Source of the DNA: an uncultured Alcaligenaceae bacterium
GTDB taxonomy: Bacteria; Pseudomonadota; Gammaproteobacteria; Burkholderiales; Casimicrobiaceae
Assembly: GCA_964620265.1 (NCBI GenBank)
Contig: CAZUGY010000002.1
Coordinates: 13,504 to 77,503, forward strand
Direction of reading: 5' to 3'
Length of the DNA: 64,000 bases
Positions within the stretch are counted from its first letter, which is position 1, and each line of letters begins with the position of its first letter. The notes below the pieces were generated by a model. The model worked only from the letters and a program-made list of their open reading frames with translations, did not search any database and was not told the DNA's origin. Both the position numbers and the translations under genes were made by a program. This document shows, in pieces, positions 6,352 to 64,000 of the stretch.

Positions 6352-6368
6352 GCCGGACACCTCCCCGC

Positions 6369-6431
6369 GTCCCGAATGAGCAAGTTTACGTCACAGGGGA
6401 TCAACCACCAATGGAGGGTGGCGCCGACAAT
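6369..6431 (+). promoter_or_regulatory. AraC-type activated promoter P1: two GTC-N9-CAA direct repeats 21 bp apart, plus -10-like GACAAT
   Basis: GTCccgaatgagCAA at 6369-6383, GTCacaggggatCAA at 6390-6404, GACAAT at 6426-6431. The same geometry recurs at 11171-11233. Confidence 0.7.
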
Positions 6432-6479
6432 GGCATCCGTCCCCCAAGTCCCCCACGAACACCCGAGCGCTCCCGCCCG

Positions 6480-7805: not shown

Positions 7806-8221
7806 TGAAGAAGAAGATGAACACCCCCGCCGTCCACGATCCGCTGCCGACGCGCACGCAGCGCCTCGCGAGCGGGAACTGGAATCCCGACTGGGAGCCG
7901 TTCGCGCAGATCGATCCGGCGTGGACCGAGAAAGCCATCGCCTTCGCGATCGCGCCCGCGGTTGCCGGCGCGCTCGACAAGAAGACGATCGAGCTCATCG
8001 GCATCGCGCTCGACGCCTCGGTCACGCACCTGTACGCCCCCGGCGTGCGCCGCCACATCCAGCGCGCGCTGAAGGCAGGGGCCACGCGCGAGGAAATCAC
8101 CGCCGTGCTGCAACTGTGCTGCATGCAGGGCCTGCACAGCATGTGCCTCGCCGCGCCGATCCTCCTCGACGAGCTCGGCGAGGCGCCATCGACCATCACC
8201 ACCGAGAGGACCCGACCATGA
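7805..8221 (+). CDS. Carboxymuconolactone decarboxylase / AhpD-like family protein (no CxxC)
   Basis: The ATG overlaps the MFS stop (alternative ATG at 7817). LDKKTIELIGIALDA...HIQRALKAGATREEITAVL fits the CMD family pattern. Confidence 0.8.
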   Translation: MKKKMNTPAVHDPLPTRTQRLASGNWNPDWEPFAQIDPAWTEKAIAFAIAPAVAGALDKKTIELIGIALDASVTHLYAPGVRRHIQRALKAGATREEITAVLQLCCMQGLHSMCLAAPILLDELGEAPSTITTERTRP

Positions 8222-9276: not shown

Positions 9277-9284
9277 GGATGACC

Positions 9285-10277: not shown

Positions 10278-11166
10278 CGTCATCGACAACACGGCGCCCG
10301 CCGTGACCCCCACGCAGCTTCGCGTCGAGCCGCTGACCTGCGCCATCGGCGCGGAAGTCCTCGGCGTGAGTCTCGGCGACGCCGCGCGCGACGACGGGCT
10401 GTTCGCGCAGATTCGCGCCCTGCTCCTGCGGCACAAGGTGCTGTTCCTGCGCAACCAGGACATCACGCGCGCCGAGCACGTCGCGTTCGCGCGCAGGTTC
10501 GGCGACCTCGAGGATCACCCGGTGGCCGGCAGCGATCCCGACCACCCCGGCCTCGTGCGCATCTACAAGTCACCCGACCAGCCCAACGACCGCTACGAGA
10601 ACGCGTGGCATACCGACGCGACGTGGCGCGAGAAGCCGCCGTTCGGCTGCGTGCTGCGCTGTGTGGAGTGCCCGCCGGTGGGCGGCGACACCATGTGGGC
10701 GAACATGGCCCTTGCCTACGAGCGCCTGCCCGATCACGTGAAGGCACAGATCGCCGGCCTGCGCGCGCGCCACAGCATCGAGGCGACGTTCGGCGCCGCC
10801 ATGCCGATCGAGAGGCGCCTGGCGCTCAAGGCGCAGTTCCCGGACGCCGAGCACCCGGTCGTGCGCACGCACCCGGAAACCGGCGAGAAGGTCCTGTTCG
10901 TCAACGCGTTCACGACGCACTTCACGAACTTCCACACCCCGGAGCGCGTGCGCTACGGCCAGGACTACAGCCCCGGCGCCGCCCAGCTCCTCGAGTACCT
11001 CGTCAGCCAGGCGCTCATCCCCGAGTACCAGGTCCGCTGGCGCTGGGAGCCCAACGCGGTCGCCATCTGGGACAACCGCTGCACGCAGCATTACGCAGTC
11101 ATGGACTACCCGCCGTGTCACCGGAAGATGGAGCGCGCCGGGATCATGGGGGACACGCCTTTCTAG
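10270..11166 (+). CDS. TauD/TfdA-family Fe(II)/2-oxoglutarate dioxygenase
   Basis: WHTD (HxD), GGDTMW, EHPVVRTHPETG and IWDNRCTQHYA (distal His) followed by a conserved Arg. Confidence 0.93.
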   Translation: MTNVIDNTAPAVTPTQLRVEPLTCAIGAEVLGVSLGDAARDDGLFAQIRALLLRHKVLFLRNQDITRAEHVAFARRFGDLEDHPVAGSDPDHPGLVRIYKSPDQPNDRYENAWHTDATWREKPPFGCVLRCVECPPVGGDTMWANMALAYERLPDHVKAQIAGLRARHSIEATFGAAMPIERRLALKAQFPDAEHPVVRTHPETGEKVLFVNAFTTHFTNFHTPERVRYGQDYSPGAAQLLEYLVSQALIPEYQVRWRWEPNAVAIWDNRCTQHYAVMDYPPCHRKMERAGIMGDTPF

Positions 11167-49701: not shown

Positions 49702-50225
49702 TCGACCCTCGCTCGTACCTGACGGCAGAGACCGCGAAGGGTGGCCTCTCCGTCACGATACGTGCGCTGCGCCCCGATGATCGCGACCGCATGGCGGCCG
49801 CGGTGCGCGGGCTCGATCCCGAATCGATCTATCTTCGCCTCTTCAGCCGCGGTCGCGAGCTCACGGAGAGCGCGATCGACCGCATCATGCGCTTCGATCC
49901 CGAGCGCGAGGTCGTCCTCGTGGCCACCACCGACGACGACACGCGTGTCATCGGCTCCGCGCGCTACGTGGTAGCGGCCCCCGGCACCGCGGAGGTCGCC
50001 TTCGTCGTCGACGAGGACTTCCGGGGCCAGGGCATCGCCGGCCACCTCCTGCGCCATCTCGCCCGTGTCGCCTCGGCGCAGGGCATCGGCACCTTCGAGG
50101 CCGACGTCCTCGCGCGCAATCGCGCCATGCAGGCCGTGTTTGCGCGCGCCGGCTGGGCCGTGCAGTCGCGGCGCCAGGGCGATTCCGTGCATCTCACGAT
50201 GGCCTTGCCGCGTGACCCGGAATAA
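49698..50225 (+). CDS. GNAT N-acetyltransferase
   Basis: IRALRPDD, SIYLRLFS, GSARYV, AEVAFVVDEDFRGQGIAGHLL and VLARNRAMQAVF. Confidence 0.88.
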   Translation: MIDPRSYLTAETAKGGLSVTIRALRPDDRDRMAAAVRGLDPESIYLRLFSRGRELTESAIDRIMRFDPEREVVLVATTDDDTRVIGSARYVVAAPGTAEVAFVVDEDFRGQGIAGHLLRHLARVASAQGIGTFEADVLARNRAMQAVFARAGWAVQSRRQGDSVHLTMALPRDPE

Positions 50226-50280
50226 CGCCGGCACGCCACCTCGCAAGCGAACCTCGCGGCGCCTTCTCCTGCGTGCCGAG

Positions 50281-51621
50281 GTGCGCCTGCGGCGGTTCGC
50301 GCGCCACCTGCGCGGCCGCCTCGCATGGGGCCGCCTCTACTGGCTCACGAGCTACCTGCGCTCGGCACTGTGGACGGTGCCGCTCATCGCCATCGCGATC
50401 GTGATCGTCGCGGTGCCGGCGCTGCGCTGGCTCGACCGCTGGCTGCACTGGGAGTGGACCGCCCTCGCTCCGGCCGGCGCGGAAGCGCTCTACCAGACCG
50501 CGATCACGCTCACGCTGTCGTTCCTCGTCTTCACGTTCGGCTCGCTGCTGGTGGCGATCCAGGTCGCGGGCGGGCAGCTCACGCCGCGCATCATCGCCAC
50601 GATCCTGCTGCGCAACAACGTGGTCCGCTACAGCGTGGGCCTGTTCACCTTCACGCTCGTGTTCGCGGTGATGGCGTTGAACCGCCAGGAAGCCGCGGTG
50701 AGCCAGCTCGTGGCGTTCCTCGTCGCATTGCTGGGCATCGCGAGCATCGCGGACTTCCTCTTCCTCATCGACTACGCCGCGCGGCTCCTGCGCCCGGTGA
50801 GTGTCGTGGCCCACGTGGGCAATGCCGCGGTGGACGTGATCCGCAGCGTCTATCCGGTGCTGCTCACCGAGGCGATGGCCGACGTGCAGCCGCTGCGCAT
50901 CGGCACCGACAAGCCCGTGCGCCTGGTCGTGCACCGCAGCGCTCCCGGCATCGTGCTCGCCGTGGACCTGCGCTCGATCGTGAGCCACGTGCGCCGCCAC
51001 GGGGGCGTGGTGGAGTTCATGCCGCGCGTGGGCGACTTCGTGTCCGAGGACGATCCGCTGTTCGCCCTCTTCGGCGCCGCCGCATCGATCGACGACCGCG
51101 TGCTGCACGCGACCGTCGCGGTGGGTGTCGAACGCACGCTCGAGCAGGATCCGATGTTCGCCTTCCGCATCCTCGTCGACATCGCCTTGAAGGCGCTGTC
51201 GCCCGCCATCAACGATCCCACCACCGCGGTGCTGGCCCTCGACCAGATCCACCGCCTCCTGCGGCTCGTGGGCAAGCGGCGGCTGCGCAGCGAGCTCGTG
51301 CACGACGACGCGGGCGCGCCGCGGATCATCTTCCGCACGCCGAACTGGGAGGACTACGTCGAGGTCTCCTGCAAGGAGATCCGCCACTGCGGCGGCGCAA
51401 GCCTCCAGGTCGTGCGGCGGATGCGCGCGATGCTCGAGGACCTGCACGAGGCCGTCCCCGCGTCGCGCCGGACCGCGCTGGAGCAGGAGCTGCGCCTCCT
51501 CGACGCGACAGTCGATGCCTCCTTCCCCGCTCGCGAGGATCGCGAGCTCGCACGCATCGGCGATCTCCAGGGCCTGGGCAGCGCGACGCCACGCGGCGGC
51601 GACCCGGTGACGCATCCATGA
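50281..51621 (+). CDS. DUF2254-family membrane protein (start uncertain)
   Basis: QVAGGQLTPRII, ERTLEQDPMFAFRILVDIALKALSPAINDPTTAV and NWEDYV. Confidence 0.82.
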   Translation: MRLRRFARHLRGRLAWGRLYWLTSYLRSALWTVPLIAIAIVIVAVPALRWLDRWLHWEWTALAPAGAEALYQTAITLTLSFLVFTFGSLLVAIQVAGGQLTPRIIATILLRNNVVRYSVGLFTFTLVFAVMALNRQEAAVSQLVAFLVALLGIASIADFLFLIDYAARLLRPVSVVAHVGNAAVDVIRSVYPVLLTEAMADVQPLRIGTDKPVRLVVHRSAPGIVLAVDLRSIVSHVRRHGGVVEFMPRVGDFVSEDDPLFALFGAAASIDDRVLHATVAVGVERTLEQDPMFAFRILVDIALKALSPAINDPTTAVLALDQIHRLLRLVGKRRLRSELVHDDAGAPRIIFRTPNWEDYVEVSCKEIRHCGGASLQVVRRMRAMLEDLHEAVPASRRTALEQELRLLDATVDASFPAREDRELARIGDLQGLGSATPRGGDPVTHP

Positions 51622-52511
51622 TCCCCGGTGGCATCGTGCCCGACTGGCTGCTGTCGATCACGGCCGCCTGCACGCTCTTCGTCGTGATGTTCGACCTGGG
51701 GCTCGCGGTGGTGCCGGGGGAATTCCGCGCGGTGCTGCGCCCGCCCGGGCTCCTCACCCGCGCGCTCTTCGCGGTGCTCGTGGCCGTGCCGTGCATGGTC
51801 TGGCTCGTGTGCAGGGTGTTCGACCTCTCCCGTCCGGTCGAGATCGGGATGATGCTCATGGCGATCGCTCCGGGGGCGCCATTCGCGCTGCGCAACTCGC
51901 TCGGCGCGGGCGGCCACCCGGCCTTCGCGCCGGTGCTGCAGATCGGCCTCGCCTTCGCGGCGATCGTGTCGATGCCGCTGTGGATCCTGGGCCTCGACGA
52001 GTACTACGCGGGCACGGCGTCGGTCGATCCGCGCCACCTCGCCCGCCAGGTGATGGTGGCGCAGCTCCTGCCGCTCGCGCTCGGCATGCTCGCGCGCTGG
52101 CGCTTCGAGGGCCTGGTCGCGCGGCTCGAGCCCGCGCTGCGGCAGGTCGGCTCGGGCCTCCTCGGGCTGTTGCTGGTGCTGGCGCTCCTCGACGTGTACC
52201 AGACCGTGCTCGATGCCGGGCCGCGCGTCGCGGTGGCCATCGTCGTGGCCACGCTGCTCGCCCTCGCGGCGGGACATCTGCTGGGCGGGCCGGCCGCGGG
52301 CACGCGCACGGCCACCGCCATCTCGAGCGCCTCGCGCAACGCGGGGCTCGCGCTCCTGGTGGCCACGCTCAATCACGCGAGCGCCGCGATCGTCGCGACG
52401 GTGCTCGCCTATTTCGTGCTCTCGGCGAGCACCGTAGTCGTCTACGCGCTGTGGCGCCGCCGCACGGCGGCCGCGACGGCGATTCCACCACCGGCAAGAG
52501 GAGTGCAATGA
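51618..52511 (+). CDS. Bile acid:Na+ symporter (BASS)-family transporter
   Basis: VMFDLGL, MAIAPGAPF, QLLPLALGM, AISSASRNAGLALLVA. About 9-10 hydrophobic segments. Confidence 0.8.
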   Translation: MIPGGIVPDWLLSITAACTLFVVMFDLGLAVVPGEFRAVLRPPGLLTRALFAVLVAVPCMVWLVCRVFDLSRPVEIGMMLMAIAPGAPFALRNSLGAGGHPAFAPVLQIGLAFAAIVSMPLWILGLDEYYAGTASVDPRHLARQVMVAQLLPLALGMLARWRFEGLVARLEPALRQVGSGLLGLLLVLALLDVYQTVLDAGPRVAVAIVVATLLALAAGHLLGGPAAGTRTATAISSASRNAGLALLVATLNHASAAIVATVLAYFVLSASTVVVYALWRRRTAAATAIPPPARGVQ

Positions 52512-53410
52512 TGGCGAAGGACAAGGGCAAGGCGCGCGGTGCGAGCCGCGCAACGACGGACAAGGCAGTGAAGGAGGCGACGGCCACGAAGCGGCCCGCG
52601 CGCAAGGCGTCCGCGGACGCAGGCAACCAGGCGGGCGGCGAGCTCAGCGGCAAGCAGTACGACGCGGAGCTGAAGAAGCTGCACATCGAGCTCGTGAAGC
52701 TGCAGCAATGGGTGCAGGCCAAGGGCCTCAAGGTCTGCATCGTGTTCGAGGGGCGCGACGGCGCGGGCAAGGGCGGTACCATCAAGGCGATCACGGAGCG
52801 GGTGAGCCCGCGCGTGTTCCGGGTGGTCGCGCTGCCCGCTCCGACGGAGCGCGAGAAGTCGCAGATGTACGTGCAGCGCTACCTGCCGCACCTCCCCGCC
52901 GGCGGCGAGATCGTGATCTTCGACCGCAGCTGGTACAACCGCGCGGGCGTGGAGCGCGTGATGGGCTTCACGCCCGAGCACCAGGTCGAGCGCTTCCTCA
53001 AGGGCGTGCCGCTGGTGGAGAAGACGATCACCGACTCGGGGATCATCCTCCTCAAGTACTGGCTCGAGGTGAGCGAAGCGGAGCAGACGCGCCGGCTCGC
53101 GTCGCGCATCGAGGACGGCCGCAAGATCTGGAAGCTCTCGCCGATGGACCTCGAGTCGTACAGCCGCTGGTACGACTACTCGCGCGCCCGCGATGCGATG
53201 TTCGAGGCGACCGATACCGCGTGGGCGCCGTGGTACGTCGCCAATTCCGAGAACAAGAAGCGCGTGCGGCTCAACATCATCTCGCACATATTGTCGAGGA
53301 TTCCGTACGAGGAATTGCCGCGGGCGAAGATCGTGCTGCCCAAGCGGCAGAAGGCCAAGGGCTACAAGGACCCCGACTACGCCTACAAGCGGGTGCCGGA
53401 GAAGTACTGA
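52508..53410 (+). CDS. ppk2: Polyphosphate kinase 2
   Basis: FEGRDGAGKGGTIK Walker A, FDRSWYNRAGVERVMGF, WKLSPMD and WYDYSRARD. Confidence 0.95.
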   Translation: MMAKDKGKARGASRATTDKAVKEATATKRPARKASADAGNQAGGELSGKQYDAELKKLHIELVKLQQWVQAKGLKVCIVFEGRDGAGKGGTIKAITERVSPRVFRVVALPAPTEREKSQMYVQRYLPHLPAGGEIVIFDRSWYNRAGVERVMGFTPEHQVERFLKGVPLVEKTITDSGIILLKYWLEVSEAEQTRRLASRIEDGRKIWKLSPMDLESYSRWYDYSRARDAMFEATDTAWAPWYVANSENKKRVRLNIISHILSRIPYEELPRAKIVLPKRQKAKGYKDPDYAYKRVPEKY

Positions 53411-53438
53411 CCGTGCCGGGCCGCGGCAGCTCGGGCAC

Positions 53439-53466
53439 CGGGCGCGGGGCGGCGCGCCCGCGCCCG
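53439..53466. terminator. Hairpin between convergent ppk2 and fabI
   Basis: CGGGCGCGGG (53439-53448) and CCCGCGCCCG (53457-53466) form a perfect 10-bp stem. No U-tract. Confidence 0.5.
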
Positions 53467-53468
53467 TG

Positions 53469-54251
53469 TCACGCCATGATGTTGACGCCGCCGTCGATGT
53501 AGAGCGTCTCGCCCGACAGGCGCCGGGCGTAGGGCGTGGCGAGGTAGGCGCAGGTGAAGCCCACGTCCATGATGTCCACGAGCTCGCCCAGCGGCGCGCG
53601 CTGGGCGGCCTCGGTGAGGAGGAGGTCGAAGTCCTTCAAGCCCGACGCGGCGCGCGTCTTGAGCGGGCCGGGCGAGATCGCATGCACGCGGATGCCCTGC
53701 CCGCCGAGCTCGTAGGCGAGGTAGCGGCACGAGGCTTCGAGCGCGGCCTTGACCGGACCCATCACGCTGTAGGTGGGCACGACCTTGTTGGCGCCGTAGT
53801 AGCTCATCGCGAGCATGGTGCCGCCTTCGTCCATCAGCGGCGCCGCGAGGCGGGCCATGCGCACGAACGAATGGCAGGAGACGTCCATCGCCTTGGCGAA
53901 GCCCGCCGCCGAGCACTGCAGCAGCCCGCCCTGCAGGTCCTCCTTCGGCGCGAAGGCGATCGAGTGCACGAGGATGTCGAGGCGCCCCCAGGTGCGGCGG
54001 ATCTCGTCGAACACCGCTTCGAGCTCGCCCTCCACGGACACGTCGAGCGGCATGAAGATGGCAGCGCCGAGGTCGCGCGCGAGCGGCTCGACATACGGGC
54101 GCGCCTTGGCATTGAGGTGCGTCACGGCGAGATCGGCGCCGAGCTCGCGGAAGGCCTTGGCGCAGCCCCAGGCGATCGACTGGTCGTTGGCGATCCCCAC
54201 CACGAGCGCCTTGCGGCCCTCGAGGATGCGCGTGTGCGATGCGGCGGTCAT
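53469..54251 (-). CDS. fabI: Enoyl-ACP reductase (NADH)
   Basis: VVGIANDQSIAWG, LDILVHSIAFAP, YSVMGPVKAALE (Y..M...K), ISPGPLKTRAASG and YIDGG. Confidence 0.92.
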   Translation of the reverse strand: MTAASHTRILEGRKALVVGIANDQSIAWGCAKAFRELGADLAVTHLNAKARPYVEPLARDLGAAIFMPLDVSVEGELEAVFDEIRRTWGRLDILVHSIAFAPKEDLQGGLLQCSAAGFAKAMDVSCHSFVRMARLAAPLMDEGGTMLAMSYYGANKVVPTYSVMGPVKAALEASCRYLAYELGGQGIRVHAISPGPLKTRAASGLKDFDLLLTEAAQRAPLGELVDIMDVGFTCAYLATPYARRLSGETLYIDGGVNIMA

Positions 54252-54264
54252 TCCGGTCTCTTCC

Positions 54265-55458
54265 TCAGGAAGCGTTCGCGGGCGAGAGCACGTTGCGCGT
54301 GTGGCGCGCGATCATGAGCTCTTCGTTGGTGGGAAGTGCGAGCACCGCCACGCGGCTTTCGGGGGTGCTGATGCGGATGGCGCCGGCGGCATTGGCCGCG
54401 GGGTCGAGCGCCACGCCGAGCCACGCGGCATCGCGGCACACGCGCTCGCGCAGCGATACGCTGTGCTCGCCGATGCCCGCCGTGAACACGATCGCATCGA
54501 GCCCGCCCAGCGCCGCTGCGAGCGAGCCCAGCTCGCGGCCGATGCGGTAGACGAAGAGGTCGATCGCCTCGCGCGCGTGCGGATCGGCGCTCGCCTCGAG
54601 CGTGCGCATGTCGCTCGACACGCCGGACACGCCGAGGAGCCCGGACTGCTGGTAGATGAGCTTCTCGATGGCGCGCGCATCCATGTGCAGCTCGTTCATG
54701 CAGTAGAGCAGCACGCCGGGATCGATGTTGCCGCAGCGCGTGCCCATCGGGAGGCCGTCGACGGCGGTGAAGCCCATCGTGCTCGCCACGCTGCGCCCGG
54801 CGGCGAGCGCGCACATGCTGGCGCCGTTGCCCAGGTGCAGCACGACCGTCCGGCCCGTCGCCGCGCGCGCGTCGTGCCCGGGCAGCGCCTGCGCGATGTA
54901 CTCGTATGAGAGGCCATGGAAGCCGTAGCGCACGACACCACGCTCGCCGAATTCGCGCGGCAGCGCGAAGGCCTGCGCCACCGCGGGCTGGCTGCGGTGA
55001 AAGGCGGTGTCGAAGCACGCCACCTGCGGCAAATCGGGTTGTCGCGCCATCAGCAGGCGGATGGGTGCCAGGTTGTGCGGCTGGTGCAGCGGGGCGAGCG
55101 GCACGAAGCGCTCGAGCGCGGCGAGCACCCCGGCATCCACGCGGATGGGCCGCGCGTAATCCGGGCCGCCGTGCACCACGCGATGCCCCACGGCCGTGAG
55201 CGTGTACGCCGAGAAGCGCGCACGCAACAGCGCGATGAGGTAGTCGAGCGCGCCTTCGTGCCCGAGGCTCGCGCCGTCGCCCCAGGACTTCTCGTCGAAC
55301 ACCTTGCCGCTGCTGTCGCGCGCGACGAAGCGCGGCGAGGTGAACAGGCCCTCGGCCTGGCCGCTGGCGAAGACGGACAGCTCGCCTCCGCGCGGTTCGA
55401 AGAGCGAGAACTTGAGGCTCGACGAGCCCGCGTTGAGGACGGCGATCGCGTCGGGCAT
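54265..55458 (-). CDS. ackA: Acetate/propionate kinase
   Basis: LNAGSSSLKF, GHRVVHGG, FDTAFH, RYGFHGLSY, HLGNGAS, PMGTRCG and PTNEELMIA. Confidence 0.95.
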   Translation of the reverse strand: MPDAIAVLNAGSSSLKFSLFEPRGGELSVFASGQAEGLFTSPRFVARDSSGKVFDEKSWGDGASLGHEGALDYLIALLRARFSAYTLTAVGHRVVHGGPDYARPIRVDAGVLAALERFVPLAPLHQPHNLAPIRLLMARQPDLPQVACFDTAFHRSQPAVAQAFALPREFGERGVVRYGFHGLSYEYIAQALPGHDARAATGRTVVLHLGNGASMCALAAGRSVASTMGFTAVDGLPMGTRCGNIDPGVLLYCMNELHMDARAIEKLIYQQSGLLGVSGVSSDMRTLEASADPHAREAIDLFVYRIGRELGSLAAALGGLDAIVFTAGIGEHSVSLRERVCRDAAWLGVALDPAANAAGAIRISTPESRVAVLALPTNEELMIARHTRNVLSPANAS

Positions 55459-55460
55459 CG

Positions 55461-56402
55461 TCAGGCGAGCGCCTTGCCGGGCGCTTCGCGCCGCGCGCTG
55501 GCAACGAGCGACGCGATGCCGCACGAGGCAAGGCGGGTGGTGTTGGAGTCGGCGCGGCTGGTGAGGATGATCGGCACGCGCGCGCCGAGCACGATGCCGG
55601 CGGCGTCGGCGCCGGCGAGGAACGACAGGCTCTTGGCGAGCATGTTGCCCGCCTCGAGATCCGGCACGACAAGCACGTTGGCCCGTCCGGCCACCGGCGA
55701 ATCGATCTTCTTGATCTTCACCGACTCGAGGCTGATCGCGTTGTCGAGCGCGAGCGGACCGTCGAGGATGGCGCCCGTGATCTGCCCGCGATCGGCCATC
55801 TTGCACAGCGCGCCCGCCTCGACCGTGGACGGGACCTTGGGATTCACCGTCTCCATCGCGGAGAGGATGGCGACACGCACTTCGGGAAAGCGCATGGCGT
55901 GCCCGAGGTCGATGGCGTTCTGGATGATGTGGACCTTGTCCTCCATCGTGGGGGCGATGTTGATCGCCGCGTCGGTGACGATGAGGGTCTCGCTGTACGA
56001 GGGCACGTCCATGACGAAGCAGTGGCTGACCCGGCGCGAGGTGCGCAAGCCCGTCTCGCGCCGCACCACCGCACCCATGAGCTCGTCGGTATGCAGGCTC
56101 CCCTTCATGAGCGCCTCCGCCTTGCCCTCGCGCACGAGGGCCACCGCCCTGGCGGCGGAGGCCTCGGTATCCGCGGCATCGACGAGCGGCAGCGCGGCGA
56201 TGTCGATCCCGTGCTTGCGTGCGACCTCCTCGATGAGCGCCTTGGGACCCACGAGGATCGGGGCGATGAGCCCGAGCGCCGCGGCGTCCACCACTCCCCG
56301 CAGCGAGCTCTCGTCGCATGGGTACGCCACCGCGGTGGGCACCGGTGGCAGCGTCTTGCAGAAATCGAGGAGACGCTGGTATTTCTCGCGCGTTCGTTCC
56401 AT
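55461..56402 (-). CDS. pta: Phosphate acetyl/butyryltransferase (no MaoC domain)
   Basis: LMKGSLHT, DAAINIAP, DGPLALDNA, VPDLEAGNMLAK and GARVPIILTSRAD. Directly upstream of ackA. Confidence 0.88.
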   Translation of the reverse strand: MERTREKYQRLLDFCKTLPPVPTAVAYPCDESSLRGVVDAAALGLIAPILVGPKALIEEVARKHGIDIAALPLVDAADTEASAARAVALVREGKAEALMKGSLHTDELMGAVVRRETGLRTSRRVSHCFVMDVPSYSETLIVTDAAINIAPTMEDKVHIIQNAIDLGHAMRFPEVRVAILSAMETVNPKVPSTVEAGALCKMADRGQITGAILDGPLALDNAISLESVKIKKIDSPVAGRANVLVVPDLEAGNMLAKSLSFLAGADAAGIVLGARVPIILTSRADSNTTRLASCGIASLVASARREAPGKALA

Positions 56403-56412
56403 GAGGGGCTCG

Positions 56413-58851
56413 CTAGGGGCGTGAAGAGGTCTTGGTCCCGGGTTTGCGCACGGTGCCGCGCTTGCGCACCGTCTTGCGTGCCCGCGGCGGGGCCGTGCCC
56501 CGGGTCACAGCCTTGGGCGCGGGCGTCTTCGCCTTCTTCGCGGGCGCCGCGGCAGGCGGGGATTGCAGCGCTAGCACGTGGCTCAGCTCCTCCACCATCG
56601 CGAGCTGGCCCTTGGTGGGATCGGTGCGCCGTACGCGCGGATCCTGCACGAGGCGGCGCACCAGCGTGACGAGGCGCGCGCGGTCGCGGGGGTCGCGCAG
56701 CAGCTCGGGCAAGGTGGCGAGCGCCTCGTCGGGCGCATAGCGGACGACGATGTCCTGCTCGCCCCGGATGCGCCGCCACTGGTCGGGCGGCATGTCGGGG
56801 AGAAGGTCGCGATACTCGCCCAGGAGCTGCTGGCGCGTGGACAGCCGCGACAGCAGCACGGGCTCGCCCTTGCGCGCCAGGAGGCAGGCCACGCGCGCCA
56901 GCGCCTCGGGATAGCCCCCCTGCGCCATCGAGGCCAGCGCCTCCTGCACGAAAGGCAGGTCGCGCGGCTCCGCCACGCCCGCCGGCGCGGACGGGCGCTT
57001 GTCCGCCACGTAGAGCGAGAAGACGTTGCCGTAGGTGAGGAAGAATGCCGCCTCGCTGGCGGCATCGCGCACTGCGCGATAGTGGTCGAGCGAGGCGCTG
57101 ATCGCCGCGGAGGCGGCCTTCTCCAGCTTCACGTAGGCATTGTCAGTGGCCGCGCTCGTGCGCTGCTCGCGCACCGCATGCGCGGCAGGGCCGAGCCAGG
57201 CAAGCCACGGATTGAGGTCGGAGACCGCCCAGCGCTGCGCGCGCAACGGATGCAGCGTGCGCGCGAGCTTGGCCGTGTACTCGTTGGCGCCTGCCTGCAC
57301 GAGCGGCTGCAGGAACAATTCGTAGGCGCGCTGGTTGAACTCGGAGACGGCGGCGAGCGCCTCGAACGGCTGCTCGTCGGCGCGCTGGAAGCGGTTCAGC
57401 CGCGCCATCACGCTCTCGAGCGTGCGCTCCTCGAAGGCGACGTCGAATTCGGTCGCCCCGCCGCGCCCCTTGCGCTCGCGGATGTGCATCGCATAGAGTC
57501 CGGGCGGGAGCATCTCGATCGAATGCAGCACCTCGACGATCTGCGCGTGCTCCTTGTTCGCCACCTTGCCGGAGACGAAGATGCCGAGATGGCCCACGCT
57601 CTCGTGCACCAGCCCCACGATGACCTGGCCGCGCGACTTGATCTCGTCGGTGGATCCGTAGACGTCGGCCACCCAGTTGAAGGCCTGCTGCGGCGGCGTG
57701 ATGTTGTCGCCCATCGACGCGAACAGGATGATCGGCGCCTTGATCGAGCGCAGGTCGAACACCTCGCCGCCCGGACCCTTCGTATCGCCCGTCCACAGCT
57801 TGTTGCCGACGAAGAGGTTGCGGGTGATCCACTCGATCTCCTCGCGGTTCATGAGGTAGAAGCCGCCCCACCAGCGCTCGAACTCGAGGAAGCGCGGGGG
57901 CTCGGTGTCGACGTTCGAGTAGAGGTGGTAGTACTTGTCCCAGAAGGTGTTGGCGGGATTGAGGTTCTCGAAGTTGTCGACGAGGTGCGCGCCGTCGAAC
58001 ACGCCGTCGCCCAGGTCGGCGGTGAGCGAGGCGAGCCAGGCGCCGCCCAGCATGCCGCCGGCGTAGCGCATCGGATTGTCGCCCGCGCCTTCGTCCCACG
58101 CGCCGCCCCAGTAGGACATCGGCGCGCCGTTGATCACGATGGGGCCGGTGTCGTCGGGATCGGCGGCGGCGAGCATCATCGCCGCCCACCCGCCCTGGCA
58201 GTTGCCGATGATGGCGGGCTTGGGGCTTTGCGGATGCAGCTCCCGCACCTTGCGCACGAAGGCCTGCTCCGCGCGGCACACGTCGAGCAGCGTCTGCCCG
58301 GGCTCGGGGTCGCGGAAGAAGATCACGAAGTAGACGGGATGGCCCGCGCGCAGCGCCACGCCCACCTGCGAGTCGTCCTTGAAGCCGCCGATGCCGGGAC
58401 CATGGCCCGCGCGCGGATCGATGATGACGTAAGGGCGGGACGTGGGATCGATCTGCGTGCCCGCGGGCGGCACGATGCGCACGAGCGCGTAGTTCACCGG
58501 GCGCGCGAGCGTGCGGCCATCGACCACGATCTCGTGCTCGAAGTGGAGCACGGGGGGCAGTCCGGCGTTGGCGTGCTCGAGGAAGGCATTGCCGCGCTGG
58601 CGCAACGTGTCCCAGAAGAGCACGGCGCGCTGGCTCGCGTCGACCGCGTAGGCGTACGCGTCGGTCCACAGGCGGGCGGCGTCGGCGGGCGTGGCGGGAG
58701 GCGCGCCCACGCCGTGGTCCTCGCGCGCCTGCGCGAGGCGCCGCGAGAGGGCATCCTGCGCGATCTCCACGCGCTTGCGGAAGACGGTGCCGACCTTGGT
58801 GGCGATGTCCTGGCTGCGTGCGAGCTTGCTCGCCGGGCTCGGCCTGCTCAT
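56413..58851 (-). CDS. DUF3141-family PhaC-like alpha/beta hydrolase
   Basis: IDPRAGHGPGIGGFK, nucleophile motif GNCQGG, SMGDNITPP (Asp), VGHLGIF (His) and RFLEFERWW. Basic C-terminal tail. Confidence 0.85.
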   Translation of the reverse strand: MSRPSPASKLARSQDIATKVGTVFRKRVEIAQDALSRRLAQAREDHGVGAPPATPADAARLWTDAYAYAVDASQRAVLFWDTLRQRGNAFLEHANAGLPPVLHFEHEIVVDGRTLARPVNYALVRIVPPAGTQIDPTSRPYVIIDPRAGHGPGIGGFKDDSQVGVALRAGHPVYFVIFFRDPEPGQTLLDVCRAEQAFVRKVRELHPQSPKPAIIGNCQGGWAAMMLAAADPDDTGPIVINGAPMSYWGGAWDEGAGDNPMRYAGGMLGGAWLASLTADLGDGVFDGAHLVDNFENLNPANTFWDKYYHLYSNVDTEPPRFLEFERWWGGFYLMNREEIEWITRNLFVGNKLWTGDTKGPGGEVFDLRSIKAPIILFASMGDNITPPQQAFNWVADVYGSTDEIKSRGQVIVGLVHESVGHLGIFVSGKVANKEHAQIVEVLHSIEMLPPGLYAMHIRERKGRGGATEFDVAFEERTLESVMARLNRFQRADEQPFEALAAVSEFNQRAYELFLQPLVQAGANEYTAKLARTLHPLRAQRWAVSDLNPWLAWLGPAAHAVREQRTSAATDNAYVKLEKAASAAISASLDHYRAVRDAASEAAFFLTYGNVFSLYVADKRPSAPAGVAEPRDLPFVQEALASMAQGGYPEALARVACLLARKGEPVLLSRLSTRQQLLGEYRDLLPDMPPDQWRRIRGEQDIVVRYAPDEALATLPELLRDPRDRARLVTLVRRLVQDPRVRRTDPTKGQLAMVEELSHVLALQSPPAAAPAKKAKTPAPKAVTRGTAPPRARKTVRKRGTVRKPGTKTSSRP

Positions 58852-58901
58852 GTCCTGGAACTCCAAAAGCCGAGCACCCGCGGCGTGCCAGCGCGTTGAG
58901 A

Positions 58902-59234
58902 CTATGAAGGCTCGCCGCCGAGCTTGTCGCCGATCCGCGTGCGGATGTTGGCGACGATGTCCTTGATCACTTCGGCGGTGAGGGTCTCGCCCATCGCACT
59001 CGAGGCCTTGTCGCGGATGTGGTAGTGGAGCATGAGCGCGTTGCGCAGCTTGTCGAAGGCAGGCTTGTTGGCCGTGCCGCAGACCGAGGCGTCGTTGGCG
59101 AGCACGCGCTCGATGATGCCCGGATCGAGCAGGCGAACCTTGCACAGCGTGGCGAGACGCGCGACCTCGCGATCGACGTCTTCGAGGTTCTTGGCCCACC
59201 ACTTCGTGCCCAGATTGCTCTTGTCGTCACTCAT
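58902..59234 (-). CDS. Hypothetical 110-aa cytoplasmic protein
   Basis: Clean ORF with protein-like composition (WWAKNLEDVDREVARLATLCKVRLLDPG...). Fills the gap between same-strand genes. Confidence 0.72.
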   Translation of the reverse strand: MSDDKSNLGTKWWAKNLEDVDREVARLATLCKVRLLDPGIIERVLANDASVCGTANKPAFDKLRNALMLHYHIRDKASSAMGETLTAEVIKDIVANIRTRIGDKLGGEPS

Positions 59235-59240
59235 GGTGTC

Positions 59241-59283
59241 ACCTTAGCCGCTCGATCGTGTCAAGACCATGACATGAATCATA
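59241..59283 (-). promoter_or_regulatory. AT-rich putative promoter with a Crp/Fnr-like palindrome
   Basis: ATGAT-tcat-GTCAT on the minus strand (59269-59282) is centred 41.5 nt upstream of the ATG at 59234. TAAGGT at 59246-59241 could be a -10 or an RBS. Confidence 0.35.
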
Positions 59284-59319
59284 TACTGCGGTTCCCGGGT
59301 GCGGGGCAAGCCGTCCCGG

Positions 59320-60531
59320 CTAGGGGCGGAACCAGGCATTGCCGACCACGAGATAGACCGCGCGCGTGCCCGGGCTCGCGGCGACGTCGATGCCCACGTG
59401 CATGCCGAACCTGCTCGCGAGCTCGTAGCGCACGCCGGCCCCGCCCGCACCGACGCTTTGCGTGAAGGAGCCGCGACTGTTGCTGGTCCATGCGCGGCCG
59501 GCGCCGCCGAAGCCGACCACGCTCCACCGGCCGTGGAACTGCCAGCGTGCCTCCACTTCCACCGAGCCGGCGTCGTCGCCCTGGTAGCGCATCGCGGGGA
59601 CGCCGCGCAGCTGCACGAACGGACGCATGAAGAAGGGGGTGCCCTCCGAGGTCCAGGTGTAAAGGCCGCGCGCGCCGAGGAAGACGTCGTCGCGCACCGG
59701 GTGCCAGCCGAGCAGCGTCTGGTCGAAGCGCTCGAAGTCCACCGAGGCGCCGAAGGATTCACGCGAGACGAAGTACGACGACTCGGCGTAGATCCCGTTC
59801 GTGGGCGTGAAGAGGCTGTCGCGCGTGTCGTACTCGAGCACGGCCGCCGGCGTGGAGAGGTTCACCCGGACGCGGTCGGCGAGGTTGGGGAAGAGCGGCT
59901 GGTCGCGCAGCCGCGGCTCCACTTCCGCGTAGAGATAGCGCAGCCCCACCGCCCACGGCGACTTCGGCGCGACCTGCCAGTTGGCCTGCAGAAGCGCGCC
60001 GGACATGGCGAGCGTGTAGCGTACGGCGACGTCGCGCGAGGTCGCGTCGCCCGACAGCCCGTAGAAGTCGAGGTTGACGAGGCCGGTGGCAGCGCCCGCG
60101 AGCGTGCGCAGGCGGCCGTCCAGCCACTTGCTCGAGTCGCCGGCCAGCGCCATCCAGGTCCCGTTCTCGGTGGCGATGGCGCCCACGGCCGAGATGTCGG
60201 GACGGGCGAAGCCCTCGTCGCCGGCGGCGTGGCGCGGGCGCAGGAACATGCCCACGATGCCGCCGCCGTAGCCCACCGCGGGCTCGGTCACCACGACCGG
60301 CACCGGGAGGAAATTGCGGGGCATGGCCAGGAACTTCGACAGGTCGAACTGGCCGTCGCGCGGATCGAAGAAGTCGCTCCAGGCGAGGCGCGGACCGAAC
60401 ACCGGCTTCTTCGCCGGATCGACCGCGGCGGCTTCGGCCTCGATCGCGTCCACGGTGGGCACCTGCGCATGCGCGGGAACGCCCGCCAGGAGAAGCGAGG
60501 CAACGATGCAGCATCGCAATGGCACGCGCAT
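59320..60531 (-). CDS. Omp85/BamA-TamA-family outer-membrane barrel without POTRA domains
   Basis: Signal peptide, then PVVVTEPAVGYGGG, LEYDTRDSLFTPTNG, QLRGVPAMRYQG (lid-loop RG motif) and GAGVRYEL..GIDVA. Confidence 0.78.
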   Translation of the reverse strand: MRVPLRCCIVASLLLAGVPAHAQVPTVDAIEAEAAAVDPAKKPVFGPRLAWSDFFDPRDGQFDLSKFLAMPRNFLPVPVVVTEPAVGYGGGIVGMFLRPRHAAGDEGFARPDISAVGAIATENGTWMALAGDSSKWLDGRLRTLAGAATGLVNLDFYGLSGDATSRDVAVRYTLAMSGALLQANWQVAPKSPWAVGLRYLYAEVEPRLRDQPLFPNLADRVRVNLSTPAAVLEYDTRDSLFTPTNGIYAESSYFVSRESFGASVDFERFDQTLLGWHPVRDDVFLGARGLYTWTSEGTPFFMRPFVQLRGVPAMRYQGDDAGSVEVEARWQFHGRWSVVGFGGAGRAWTSNSRGSFTQSVGAGGAGVRYELASRFGMHVGIDVAASPGTRAVYLVVGNAWFRP

Positions 60532-60614
60532 GACGAACCGACACCCGCGCGCGGAAGGCACCATCATGCCATCGGGCGCGCGCACGCTACCGCGGAAGGG
60601 ACGGCGCGAAATGA

Positions 60615-61238
60615 TCAGGGCTTCGGCAGGTTCGCCGCCGACAGGTCGCGTGCGAGCTCGGCGAGGATCTGCGACAGGGCCGTGTTCTGCGCCTCGACGT
60701 ACGCCGCGGCGCTTCCGGTCGTGAACGGGATCGCGCGCTCGTAGCTGCGCGTCCACACCGGCACGCCGGCATCGCCCGAGTGCGGGCGCAGGAACCAGGT
60801 GATGCGCAGCACGGCATTGGGCTTGGCCGGCACGCGGCCGTCGCCGTAGAGCGCCTCGACGAAGCCGTCGAGCACCCAGTTCGATTCCACCGCCACGCCG
60901 CCCGGCGCCACCGCATCGAAGACCCGGGCCGCCCTCAACGCGCGCACGGTGGCCTCGGCGACGTTGGCGCCCGGCGCCACGAGGAACTCGTGGTAGTAGT
61001 CGGTCTCGTACTTGAGGTCGGTCTCGCGATAGACGAACGTGCGCCCGCGATAGGGCGCGGCCACGGTGACGTTGCCCACGCGCAGCAGGCCCGGATGCGT
61101 GCGCACCACCGCAGGCGGCATCGCGGGCTCGAGGACGTAGGTCCCCTTGATGGGCGCCGGCCGCGAGCATCCCCCCACGAATCCGGACGCGGCGATCGCC
61201 GCGGCGGCGTGAACGAACTGACGGCGCGAAACGATCAT
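60615..61238 (-). CDS. ABC-type transport auxiliary lipoprotein (PqiC-like), probable Tat lipoprotein
   Basis: SRRQFV twin-arginine motif and VGGC lipobox. YRETDLKYETDYYHEFLVAPG. Overlaps the MCE gene. Confidence 0.8.
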   Translation of the reverse strand: MIVSRRQFVHAAAAIAASGFVGGCSRPAPIKGTYVLEPAMPPAVVRTHPGLLRVGNVTVAAPYRGRTFVYRETDLKYETDYYHEFLVAPGANVAEATVRALRAARVFDAVAPGGVAVESNWVLDGFVEALYGDGRVPAKPNAVLRITWFLRPHSGDAGVPVWTRSYERAIPFTTGSAAAYVEAQNTALSQILAELARDLSAANLPKP

Positions 61239-62296
61239 GGCTTGCGCTCCAGCGGTGCGGGCGGCTTGCCGAAGATCACGCTCGCGGGATAGCGTTTGGT
61301 GTCCTCGGTGAGATCGCGGAGGTTGTCCGTGATCGTCCGCAGGTTGTCGAAGGTGGTGGCGATGTCGGCATCCGAGGAACCGAAGAGGCGGTCGAAGCGG
61401 CCGGTGATGCGCTCGAGGTCGGCGATCGTCTTCGCGAGCTTGGGATCGCTCACGAGCTTGCGCACGCCGTCGATGGCCGCCGAGGTGTCCTCCGGGATCC
61501 TCGCCCATGCCGGATTCTCGAGCTGGGCTTTCAGCGCGGCATTGGACTGGCGCATCTCGGAGATGAGCGAATTGGCCTCGTCGGAGAGCTTCTTGACCTG
61601 CAGCTGCTCGAGGGCGGACTCGAGCTTCCCGAGCGTCCTTTCCGCCTGGGCGGAGAGCTTTCTCGTGTCGAGCCCCGCCACGCGCTCGTTGGTGGTGTCG
61701 AGGAGCCTGTCGATGCGCGCGACGGTCGCCTCGATGTCGACGCGATGCAGCTTCTCCAGGATGTCCTGCGCAGCATTCACGATGGCGGTGACCGTGGACG
61801 GCGCGCTCGGGATGTACAGGTTGTCGGGCGTCCAGTCGATCGGCAGCACGGGCGGCGGCGGATCGATGTAGTCCATCTCGAGGTAGCTCGTGCCGGTGAT
61901 GCCCTGCGGTGCGAGGCGCAGGCGCAGGCCCTTTTCCACTTCCATGCGGCCGCTCTCGGGATCGGTCATGTCGCCCGCCGCGGCGCGTCCGCCCACGAGA
62001 CGCGGCTGCAATTGCGCCTCCACGAGCACGTAGCGCTCGCGCTGGTTGATCGGCAGGTCGAGCTGGTAGCGCGTATAGGTGAAGGTGATCTTGGTGACCT
62101 CGCCGATGGTCACGCCGCGATACTTGAGGCGCGACCCGACGTCCAGGCCCTGCACCGACTCCTTGAAGTACGTCTCGATGAGGACCTTGCGCTCGAACCA
62201 GCGCCCGGTGCCGATGATGAGGAGCACGAGCACGCCGGCGACGATCGCGCCGATCACGAACAGGCCCAGCTTGAAGTAGTTGGCTTTCTGGCTCAT
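61235..62296 (-). CDS. MCE/MlaD-family protein with a long helical C-terminus
   Basis: FKLGLFVIG anchor, ESVQGLDVGSRLKYRGVTIGEV, LAPQGITGTSYLEM and terminal YPASVIFG. Confidence 0.92.
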   Translation of the reverse strand: MSQKANYFKLGLFVIGAIVAGVLVLLIIGTGRWFERKVLIETYFKESVQGLDVGSRLKYRGVTIGEVTKITFTYTRYQLDLPINQRERYVLVEAQLQPRLVGGRAAAGDMTDPESGRMEVEKGLRLRLAPQGITGTSYLEMDYIDPPPPVLPIDWTPDNLYIPSAPSTVTAIVNAAQDILEKLHRVDIEATVARIDRLLDTTNERVAGLDTRKLSAQAERTLGKLESALEQLQVKKLSDEANSLISEMRQSNAALKAQLENPAWARIPEDTSAAIDGVRKLVSDPKLAKTIADLERITGRFDRLFGSSDADIATTFDNLRTITDNLRDLTEDTKRYPASVIFGKPPAPLERKP

Positions 62297-62307
62297 GGCG
62301 CTCGAGG

Positions 62308-63126
62308 CTAGGCGGATTCCGGGGCAAGCTCCGCCTGCCGGTGGAAGAACTGGCGCACGTAGGGATCGGCGCTCTCGTCGCGCAGCGTGCGCGGGTCGCC
62401 GCTGGCGATGATCCCCTTGACCCGCTTGTCCAGCATGATGACACGATCGGCGATCGCGTAGATCGAGGCGAGCTCGTGCGTGACGATCACGAACGTCACG
62501 CCGAGGCTCTCGGCCAGGCGCCGGATCAGCGCATCGAGCTCGGCGGAGGTGATGGGATCGAGGCCCGCGGAAGGCTCGTCGAGGAAGAGGATCGGCGGAT
62601 CGAGCGCCATCGCGCGCGCGATGGCGGCGCGCTTCTGCATGCCGCCGGAGATCTCGTTGGGCAGGTGCCCCGTGAACTGCACGAGGCCCACGAGCGAGAG
62701 CTTCATGCGCGCGAGCAGCTCCATCTGCCCGGCATCGAGCGCGGTGAACACCTCCATCGGCAGGCGCACGTTCTCGAGCAGCGTCATCGAACCGAAGAGC
62801 GCGCCCGACTGGTACATGACGCCGAAGCGGCGCAGGATCGCGTCGCGCGCCGGGCCGTCGGCGGCGACGATGTCCTGGCCCTCGATGTACACGTGGCCGG
62901 CCACCACGTCGTAGAGGCCGATCATGTGCTTCAGCAGCGTGCTCTTGCCGCAGCCCGAGCCGCCGAGGATCACGAAGACCTCGCCGCGCTTCACGTCGAA
63001 GCTCACGTTCTCGAGGATCGTGCGGCCGTCGTAGCCGGCGGTGAGGCCGTCGACGCGGATGATGGGCGCGCCGCGCGGGACGACGGAGCCGTCGTCGGCC
63101 ATCGCCGGCGTCGTATCGGCGCTCAT
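62308..63126 (-). CDS. MlaF/Mkl-type ABC ATPase
   Basis: GGSGCGKST, YQSGALFGSMT, ISGGMQKRAAIARA, LFLDEPSAGLDP and IVTHEL. Confidence 0.94.
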   Translation of the reverse strand: MSADTTPAMADDGSVVPRGAPIIRVDGLTAGYDGRTILENVSFDVKRGEVFVILGGSGCGKSTLLKHMIGLYDVVAGHVYIEGQDIVAADGPARDAILRRFGVMYQSGALFGSMTLLENVRLPMEVFTALDAGQMELLARMKLSLVGLVQFTGHLPNEISGGMQKRAAIARAMALDPPILFLDEPSAGLDPITSAELDALIRRLAESLGVTFVIVTHELASIYAIADRVIMLDKRVKGIIASGDPRTLRDESADPYVRQFFHRQAELAPESA

Positions 63127-64000
63127 ATGTCGAGCATGAAGTAGATGACGGCGAAGACGCCGTCGACGATCACGATCAGCACGATGCCCGACACCACCGC
63201 GCGCGTGGCCGAGTCACCCACGGCGGAGGCGCCCGCGGCCGTCTGCAACCCGCGCAGGCAGCCGATGCCGGCGATGAGCAGGCCGAACACGAACGACTTC
63301 ACCCAGCCCGCCATGAAGTCCTGGAACGACACGATCGCCTCCACCTCGTTCACGAACGTGACGAAGGGGATCGAGAACGACAGCATCGTGAAGGCGCCGC
63401 CCAGGAGACCCACGAGATTCGCGAAGAGCGTGAGCAGCGGCGTCATCAGCACGGCGGCGATCACGCGCGTGGTCACGAGGAACCGGACCGGATCGAGACC
63501 CATGGTGGTGAGCGCGTCGATCTCCTGATTGACGCGCATCGTGCCGATCTCGGCCGCGAAGGCCGCGCCCGTGCGCCCGGCAAGCAGGATCGCCGTCATC
63601 AGCGCGCCGAGCTCGCGCAGCATCGCGAGGCCGATCAAGTCGGCCACGAAGATCTCCGCGCCGAACTTCTTCATCGGCACCGCCGACTGGAACGCGAGGA
63701 TCGAGCCCAGCAGGAACGAGATGAGCGCCACGATCGGCAGCGCATCGGCGCCCACGCGCTCGCAGATCACCCCCACGTCGCGCCAGCGCACCGACGACGG
63801 ATGGCGGATGGCGCCGGCCAGTGCGGCCACCGACTGGCCGAGGAACTCGACCTGCACGCGCAGGTCGCGGAACACGCCGGCGGCGGTACGCCCGACCTCC
63901 TCCACGGCGGGCCGCCGCGGGGGCTCCGGATCGAGGTCGTGGTCGAGCGCCTCGGGATCGTATTGGGCGAGCAGCGCCCCGAACGCGGGATCGAGGTTGG
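63123..64000 (-). CDS. MlaE-family ABC permease, 5' end outside the window
   Basis: RELGALMTAILLAGRTGAAFAAEIGTMRVNQEIDAL and VGDSATRAVV. The frame stays open to the window edge. Confidence 0.93.
   Translation of the reverse strand, partial: NLDPAFGALLAQYDPEALDHDLDPEPPRRPAVEEVGRTAAGVFRDLRVQVEFLGQSVAALAGAIRHPSSVRWRDVGVICERVGADALPIVALISFLLGSILAFQSAVPMKKFGAEIFVADLIGLAMLRELGALMTAILLAGRTGAAFAAEIGTMRVNQEIDALTTMGLDPVRFLVTTRVIAAVLMTPLLTLFANLVGLLGGAFTMLSFSIPFVTFVNEVEAIVSFQDFMAGWVKSFVFGLLIAGIGCLRGLQTAAGASAVGDSATRAVVSGIVLIVIVDGVFAVIYFMLDI

Follow-up and report, generated by a model that had tools for sequence, protein, structure and literature searches.

Results

The operon and its boundaries

The window analysed here, a stretch of 64,000 nucleotides from the genome of an uncultured Alcaligenaceae bacterium (contig CAZUGY010000002.1), carries five genes on its minus strand: a small open reading frame (ORF), a gene for a protein of the DUF3141 family, and genes for a Ptb-like phosphotransacylase (pta), an acetate/propionate-family kinase (ackA) and a FabI-type reductase (fabI) (Table 1). 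DUF3141, pta, ackA and fabI are packed as an operon, the gaps between them measuring 10, 2 and 13 nucleotides. An earlier note on this DNA had described the same operon, a PhaC-type catalytic triad in the DUF3141 protein and a PAKKA-containing basic tail at its C terminus, and both family scores and spacing bear out the operon. As to the span given there, 53469-59234, the operon genes stand, whereas the upper limit does not. The window has a G+C content of about 70%, and real frames were picked by codon-position G+C. The ATG at 59234 was rejected as the start of DUF3141, since it opens a separate ORF of 110 residues in a different frame, and a GTG-initiated frame at 56413-59202 was set aside as an upstream extension, homologues aligning from residue 1 of the start at 58851.

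A PhaC-like hydrolase outside the PhaC family

The DUF3141 protein matches PF11339 with 842 bits (E 2.8e-253; gathering cut-off 29.7 bits) over profile positions 1-543 of 582. Its GNCQGG, GDNITP and GHLGIF motifs, as well as PAKKA, lie at the coordinates that had been assigned to them. Across 39 aligned, diverse members of the family neither D382 nor H421 varies, and C218 is retained in at least 90%; an hhalign comparison with the genome's own PhaC (E 1e-5) brings C218, D382 and H421 into register with the Cys, Asp and His of that enzyme (IIGNCQGG/VIGYCLGG, SMGDNITP/AMEDHIAP and VGHLGIF/SGHIAGM, DUF3141 given first). When the family profile was compared with the PDB, the only match at E <0.001 was the polyhydroxyalkanoate (PHA) synthase 9knj (E 9e-4), and this match spans the cap region ahead of the Asp. 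The AlphaFold model of the protein, with a mean per-residue confidence (pLDDT) of 77 and a predicted TM-score (pTM) of 0.71, consists of an N-terminal helical hairpin, a PhaC-like alpha/beta-hydrolase core and, towards the C terminus, about 270 residues that form a helical domain; the end of the chain is unstructured. Its top seven Foldseek hits are all PhaC chains (E 2e-6 to 2e-5; target-normalised TM-score about 0.37-0.55), the best-matched structures being 6k3c, 5hz2, 5xav and 9knl. Thus, register and fold both uphold the PhaC-type Cys-Asp-His triad.

By family criteria, however, the protein is not PhaC. A Pfam search returned no PhaC_N (PF07167) match for it, whereas the two canonical PhaC proteins of the genome match that domain at E 9e-79 and 6e-65. 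Against the class I and class III PHA synthase models it scores far below the cut-offs (TIGR01838, 28.3 bits with a cut-off of 622; TIGR01836, 29.9 bits with a cut-off of 365), and the catalytic Asp is followed by Asn in GDNITP, where the genome's PhaCs have His (EDHIAP, REDHIV). Compared with class I PhaC (5hz2, 5xav, 6k3c, 9knj), the DUF3141 protein therefore shares the alpha/beta core, the G-x-C-x-G-G cysteine, the order and register of Asp and His and the cap region, but departs from it in these three respects and in the addition of the helical domain of about 270 residues and the tail.

Intracellular depolymerases of polyhydroxybutyrate (PHB) of the PhaZa1 type (PF06850) likewise use Cys-Asp-His, and release 3-hydroxybutyryl-coenzyme A (3HB-CoA) by thiolysis. 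Membership in this family was rejected, as PF06850 (PHB_depo_C) gave no match up to E 10 and the hhalign comparison with the genome's PhaZ was not significant (E 0.27). The two proteins resemble each other in local motifs only: in both the nucleophilic Cys is followed by Gln (CQ), and the GH-x-G-[IV]-F of DUF3141 recalls the GHYGVF of PhaZ. Weak Pfam matches point further to the DLH and Abhydrolase families. The DUF3141 protein is, in short, a PhaC-like alpha/beta hydrolase that is not PhaC, and the chemistry suggested by its residues would proceed through an acyl-thioester intermediate on Cys218.

DUF3141 is tied to PHA biology

The genome, which is 99.7% complete, encodes two canonical PhaC proteins, one PhaZ (PHB_depo_C), PhaR, PhaB and two phasins. 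PhaB (TIGR01829, above the equivalog cut-off), a Phasin_2 protein and PhaR are encoded together at 4809-10994 of the same contig (C2), just before the window and about 56 kb from the operon; PhaZ and the second phasin are encoded together on contig C9. Within the window there is neither phaA nor phaB, as the earlier note had stated. Since canonical synthases, depolymerase, regulator, reductase and phasins are already present, DUF3141 would provide an extra function. A second locus (contig C142, 4098-7806, minus strand) comprises another DUF3141 gene and, behind it, another Ptb-like pta (57% identical), but neither ackA nor fabI. The DUF3141 protein encoded there has 774 residues, is 55% identical to the first and has a basic tail ending in SRRTRGRKTASRKRA. 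Each of the two phosphotransacylase genes in the genome thus has a DUF3141 gene in front of it.

How general is the connection with PHA? Among 200 other genomes sampled across the class, PhaC_N was found in 8 of the 8 that encode a true DUF3141 protein, as compared with 42 of 200 overall (Fisher p = 2e-6, or 1e-5 when two genomes of one family count once). Together with the neighbours of DUF3141 on a plasmid of Pseudomonas veronii, where the order is phasin, DUF3141, pta, ackA, fabI, permease, AraC regulator, phbB and phbC, this co-occurrence supports a tie between DUF3141 and PHA biology. A0671 and B1632 of Cupriavidus necator H16, putative DUF3141 homologues on which a literature search gave nothing relevant, were reportedly found on PHB granules (Sznajder and colleagues, 2015).

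The operon in other genomes and in print

The family is very large: close sequences number at least 8000, and clusters are represented by 3501 sequences. We compared the locus with those of 80 relatives at species level, 66-80% identical; most of these are metagenome-assembled genomes of Casimicrobiaceae-like and other Burkholderiales bacteria, and Azotobacter is represented too. The order DUF3141-pta-ackA-fabI is kept in about 70 of them, Azotobacter included, and this strong synteny substantiates the proposed link of DUF3141 to Pta, AckA and FabI. Annotated copies of the operon are found in Eleftheria terrae, in Burkholderia sp. RPE67 and on pSymA of Sinorhizobium meliloti.

Operons of this type have been published before. 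For S. meliloti, an ORF-pta-ackA-fabI operon has been described whose expression is under PhoB and is raised by phosphate stress (Summers, Denton and McDermott 1999, as cited in PMC8231600), and in Burkholderia sensu lato the 'group D' clusters are given as phaC-pta-ack-fabI (PMC8231600). The order of phosphotransacylase, kinase and FabI is the same as in our window, and DUF3141 precedes pta on pSymA and in Burkholderia sp. RPE67, as it does here. The present locus differs from that of S. meliloti by its additional 110-residue ORF, by a candidate FNR-type box and by the strongly basic tail of its DUF3141 protein, which the S. meliloti protein lacks. PHB islands of Pseudomonas carry phaC, phaR, phaP, phbB, paaJ and DUF3141 (bioRxiv 10.1101/2025.03.12.642780), and in these islands and on the P. 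veronii 1YdBTEX2 plasmid eutD/pta, ackA and fabI accompany DUF3141 beside those PHB genes. The island gene lists quoted from that preprint name synthase, thiolase, reductase, phasin and regulator, with no depolymerase among them. In contrast to these islands, the operon described here does not lie beside phaC; the PHB genes of this genome are scattered, 56 kb away and on other contigs.

A further point of comparison is the low-oxygen-activated lxa locus of Burkholderia cenocepacia, in which PHA genes stand together with those for acetate kinase and a phosphate acetyl/butyryl transferase, and whose expression is induced by low oxygen (PMC3721108). Its polymer enzyme is annotated as class I PhaC, unlike DUF3141. 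Among the replicons of B. cenocepacia in a plasmid collection, DUF3141 has a single match, with 25% identity across 36% of its length. As the operon type (1999, 2021, 2025) and the Cys-Asp-His character of the DUF3141/PhaC cluster (noted in a 2024 publication) are in print, neither is new; the family has been described and is uncharacterised.

A recurrent polycationic tail

Residues 764-812 of the DUF3141 protein, SPPAAAPAKKAKTPAPKAVTRGTAPPRARKTVRKRGTVRKPGTKTSSRP, carry a net charge of +14; the last 40 residues hold 14 Lys and Arg and no Asp or Glu. The segment is predicted to be disordered (pLDDT <50), and its reading frame remains of the coding type (G+C at third codon positions 0.86). Of the 1498 confident ORFs of the genome, only 3 have a net charge of at least +12 over their last 40 residues and only 2% have at least +7, so the tail is not a chance feature. 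In 236 of 236 close homologues, belonging to both paralogue groups, the tail is likewise basic, with a mean of 11 Lys and Arg in the last 40 residues. PAKKA, by contrast, was rejected as a conserved motif: it occurs once in this copy and in none of the 236, the basic composition being kept and the sequence not. Conservation also fades further out in the family, where 45 full-length proteins, each representing a cluster at 50% identity, divide into 9 with strongly basic tails, 13 with mildly basic ones and 23 with none. Three of the 45 (P0144, P0155 and P0173) end in long AKK/KPA repeats of the histone-H1 kind. Among cultured relatives, the tail is short in Burkholderia, C. necator N-1 and Azotobacter, absent in S. 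meliloti, and long and Pro/Ala/Lys-rich in P. veronii. Because the composition recurs while motif and length vary, we regard the tail as a recurrent, dispensable polycationic appendage rather than a PhaM-type motif.

In C. necator, PhaM fastens granules to the nucleoid by way of the lysines in its PAKKA motifs (PMC9049629, PMC11352279). Like PhaM, and like PhaF of Pseudomonas putida, the DUF3141 protein has a Lys/Ala/Pro-containing, basic and disordered C-terminal segment. Unlike them, it has a single, non-conserved PAKKA, no defined motif set or AAKP-type repeats, a higher content of Arg and no phasin-like part; moreover, its tail is part of an enzyme, whereas PhaM and PhaF are scaffold proteins. 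Of the built-in nucleoid tether proposed in the earlier note, the basic disordered segment remains, whereas the PhaM/PhaF-type repeat does not, and the segment shrinks or vanishes in several cultured relatives; a tether of this kind is weakly supported. From the sequence, DNA, polyphosphate and RNA would be equally possible partners, polyphosphate being counted among them because a gene for polyphosphate kinase 2 (PPK2) adjoins the operon. The basic, floppy tail is the one new point of this analysis, a modest one that holds for part of the family, and its predicted role is speculative.

Might the tail instead be a neutral low-complexity extension with no specific partner, given that high-GC genomes readily grow Arg/Ala/Pro-rich ends? 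Its unconserved sequence, its variable length, a PAKKA unique to this copy and its absence from 23 of the 45 representatives would be expected of such an extension. A neutral origin sits less well with a net positive charge that all close homologues retain, with a coding-type frame and a richness in Lys not expected from GC drift, with the long Lys-rich repeats of three diverged family members and with the low proteome background, and we consider it less probable than not.

Only two other proteins of the genome, encoded on contigs C82 and C13, have C-terminal tails of comparable basicity; judged by eye, one is SET-domain-like and ends in poly-Lys, and the other resembles a D-Ala-D-Ala peptidase (PBP-type) whose end is rich in AKK. 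Separately, the minus strand of contig C73 (reverse-complement positions about 9376-10072) holds a histone-H1-like ORF of 225 residues for which Pfam gave no match. Its N-terminal part is short and helical, and about 130 residues of AKK/TAKK repeats, one PAKKA among them, come after it; the ORF may encode a PhaF/PhaM/AlgP-like nucleoid or granule protein.

Partner enzymes, small ORF and upstream box

The phosphotransacylase belongs to PF01515 (E 1.8e-41) and scores 515 bits with NF008852 (cut-off 413). Its match to NF006045, a model of MaoC-Pta fusions, covers the C-terminal half of that model and reaches 488 bits; with canonical Pta (TIGR00651) it scores only 76 bits, and it stays below the cut-offs of the Ptb equivalogs. 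Since NF006045, its nearest curated family, fuses Pta to an (R)-enoyl-CoA hydratase domain, C4 substrates would fit the enzyme. The kinase scores 345.6 bits with TIGR00016 (cut-off 293.4), and its gene is present in a single copy in the genome (tblastn). The operon copy of FabI reaches 447.9 bits with NF005717, as compared with a cut-off of 337; a second FabI-like gene on another contig encodes a protein 42% identical to it.

The 110-residue ORF has a coding-type codon bias (G+C by codon position 0.61/0.42/0.89) and 196 homologues, confined to this Burkholderiales lineage; C31, C52, H70 and Y71 are invariant. A Pfam search gave no domain. AlphaFold2 predicts a helical bundle (pLDDT 89.9), for which comparison with the PDB yielded no fold match (best E 3.7). 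The ORF stands directly upstream of DUF3141 in about 25 of the 80 related loci, and its product may work with DUF3141 in an accessory or regulatory capacity.

Ahead of this ORF lies a candidate box of the FNR/FixK/Dnr type, which was found solely by alignment with relatives. The closest of these (L006, L008, L010, L012, L015) have TTGAT-N4-GTCAT at the same position, and TTGAC-N4-GTCAA boxes precede many orthologues that lack the small ORF. A scan of the window with the strict FNR consensus gave no site upstream of the operon at up to 2 mismatches, and no Pho-box-like direct repeat was seen by eye in the upstream sequence. Because the conserved element is of the FNR/FixK/Dnr type, low-oxygen expression of the operon is plausible. 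A promoter and terminator scan of 53300-59400 gave no useful result for the coding strand and detected no intrinsic terminator.

PPK2 is a neighbour of the operon whose membership in the system is uncertain. Its gene lies within 8 kb of DUF3141 in about 30 of the 80 related loci, with varying position and orientation, which hints at a loose link of the operon to polyphosphate.

Table 1. The five-gene unit, the adjoining PPK2 gene and the sites discussed in the text (positions in the window)
Feature	Position	Strand	Remarks
Small ORF	58902-59234	-	110 aa (amino acids), conserved, helical; likely first gene of the unit
DUF3141	56413-58851	-	812 aa; PF11339
Ptb-like phosphotransacylase, short	55461-56402	-	313 aa; NF008852
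Acetate/propionate-family kinase	54265-55458	-	397 aa; PF00871 and TIGR00016 above cut-off
FabI-type NADH enoyl reductase, operon copy	53469-54251	-	260 aa; NF005717
Polyphosphate kinase 2 (PPK2)	52508-53410	+	PF03976, E 1e-91; convergent with fabI
Cys218 codon (TGC)	58198-58200	-	nucleophile in GNCQGG (residues 216-221)
Asp382 codon	57706-57708	-	in GDNITP
His421 codon	57589-57591	-	in GHLGIF
Basic tail, predicted disordered	56416-56562	-	residues 764-812; includes the single PAKKA at 56530-56544
Candidate FNR/FixK/Dnr-type box, ATGATTCATGTCAT	59269-59282	-	sequence match; centre 41.5 nucleotides upstream of the small-ORF ATG

Discussion

The observation made in the earlier note is confirmed, and the interpretation offered there, a non-canonical polyester synthase, depolymerase or acyltransferase with a nucleoid tether of its own and a connection to acyl-phosphate energy conservation, is partly supported. 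What, then, might the unit do? We envision that its five genes belong to the PHB economy of a PHB-accumulating betaproteobacterium. The DUF3141 protein would act at PHB granules, taking 3-hydroxybutyryl units off the ends of polymer or oligomer chains and transferring them to CoA by way of an acyl thioester on Cys218, with the participation of Asp382 and His421, such that its reaction would amount to a thiolytic mobilisation, the reverse of synthesis. The resulting CoA esters could then take either of two routes, namely oxidation and thiolysis to acetyl-CoA, or dehydration and FabI-type reduction to butyryl-CoA with re-oxidation of NADH. The Ptb-like transacylase and the kinase would turn CoA esters into free acids and ATP. 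The conserved FNR/FixK-type box might switch the unit on under oxygen shortage, and the disordered polycation tail of 49 residues, variable between lineages, probably keeps the enzyme attached, close to the granules, to a polyanion such as nucleoid DNA, polyphosphate or RNA.

Taken as a whole, this scheme of PHB-linked mobilisation by DUF3141 that feeds the formation of ATP from acyl phosphates is tentative, and we would put it slightly below an even chance. A bolder version would make DUF3141 a granule-bound thiolytic 'reverse synthase', held by its tail on nucleoid or polyphosphate, which together with the Ptb-like transacylase, the kinase, FabI and perhaps PPK2 would allow strictly respiratory bacteria to ferment PHB to acetate and butyrate, with a net gain of ATP, when oxygen is lacking; in this full form we think the proposal unlikely. 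At stake is how aerobic PHB accumulators gain energy from their polymer once respiration stops. The operon offers a candidate pathway from PHB over acyl-CoA and acyl phosphate to ATP, with an internal sink for NADH, which would matter for how bacteria survive in soil, in sludge and in association with hosts, and for the engineering of PHB turnover. The recurrent basic tail adds a speculative localisation hypothesis, for some lineages only, that concerns an enzyme and not a scaffold.

Several observations weigh against PHB mobilisation by this unit. The genome already holds a PhaZa-type depolymerase, and the triad and the fold of DUF3141 would suit a synthase equally well as a thiolytic depolymerase. 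Among the partner enzymes, the kinase belongs to the acetate/propionate family, butyrate kinase models remaining far below their cut-offs, and this copy of the operon encodes no (R)-enoyl-CoA hydratase. The control reported for S. meliloti is by PhoB and phosphate stress, not by oxygen limitation. In the window the box is degenerate, with 2-3 mismatches, and its centre lies so near the start codon, at 41.5 nucleotides, that it suits a class II activator site poorly. Many members of the family have a short tail or none, and the literature searched contains no biochemical data for any DUF3141 protein.

The main rival is that DUF3141 serves as an alternative, low-oxygen PHA synthase, so that PHB or a copolymer would act as an electron sink, Pta and AckA would draw ATP from acetyl-CoA and FabI would provide a second sink. 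Its PhaC-like fold and Cys-Asp-His triad speak for such a role, and so do the conventions and proposals of others: a Burkholderia review counts the genes of phaC-pta-ack-fabI clusters among synthase genes (PMC8231600), and for the lxa locus, which combines class I PhaC, PhaB, Pta/Ptb and AckA, the authors proposed the same logic (PMC3721108). A synthase would, however, be one that lacks PhaC_N, scores some 28-30 bits with models whose cut-offs lie in the hundreds and has Asn in place of the His that follows the catalytic Asp in both PhaC proteins of the genome. It would also stand beside canonical synthases, both in this genome and in the Pseudomonas islands, which leads us to regard this role as improbable.

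Two smaller rivals concern enzymes and conditions other than those of polymer turnover. Conceivably, DUF3141 is a soluble thioesterase for acyl-CoA or acyl-acyl carrier protein, a transacylase or a hydrolase of 3HB oligomers that never contacts the polymer, within an operon that would form a module for short-chain acyl-CoA fermentation or acetate activation. Alpha/beta hydrolases with Cys-Asp-His are capable of many acyl transfers, the weak matches to DLH and Abhydrolase families would be in keeping with this, and the AckA-Pta pathway is reversible, its overexpression improving acetate assimilation into PHA in Escherichia coli (as cited in PMC8231600). Nevertheless, the strict co-occurrence with PhaC and the phasin, phbB and phbC neighbours argue for a granule-related role, and we consider a soluble enzyme of this kind rather improbable. 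Least probable, to the point of being quite remote, is that the operon is mainly a phosphate-stress device in which acetyl phosphate is made or used under PhoB, and PPK2 and the tail point to polyphosphate and not to DNA: the PhoB-dependent induction by phosphate starvation reported for the S. meliloti operon (cited in PMC8231600) and the PPK2 gene, convergent here and recurrent near related loci, favour it, but inspection of the upstream sequence by eye gave no Pho-box-like repeat, the conserved element there being a palindromic FNR-type box, and the linkage of PPK2 is loose.

The wider surroundings of the operon comprise genes of other kinds. Beside PPK2, on the plus strand (50065-52511), are genes for a DUF2254 membrane protein and for an SBF-family (bile acid:sodium symporter-like) transporter. 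Upstream of the small ORF, on the same strand as the operon (59320-64000, minus strand), follow genes for an Omp85-like outer-membrane protein, a lipoprotein-like ORF and MlaD-like, MlaF-like and MlaE-like ABC transporter components; a homologue of the Omp85-like protein is also encoded near the operon in a few relatives (L018, L029 and L069).

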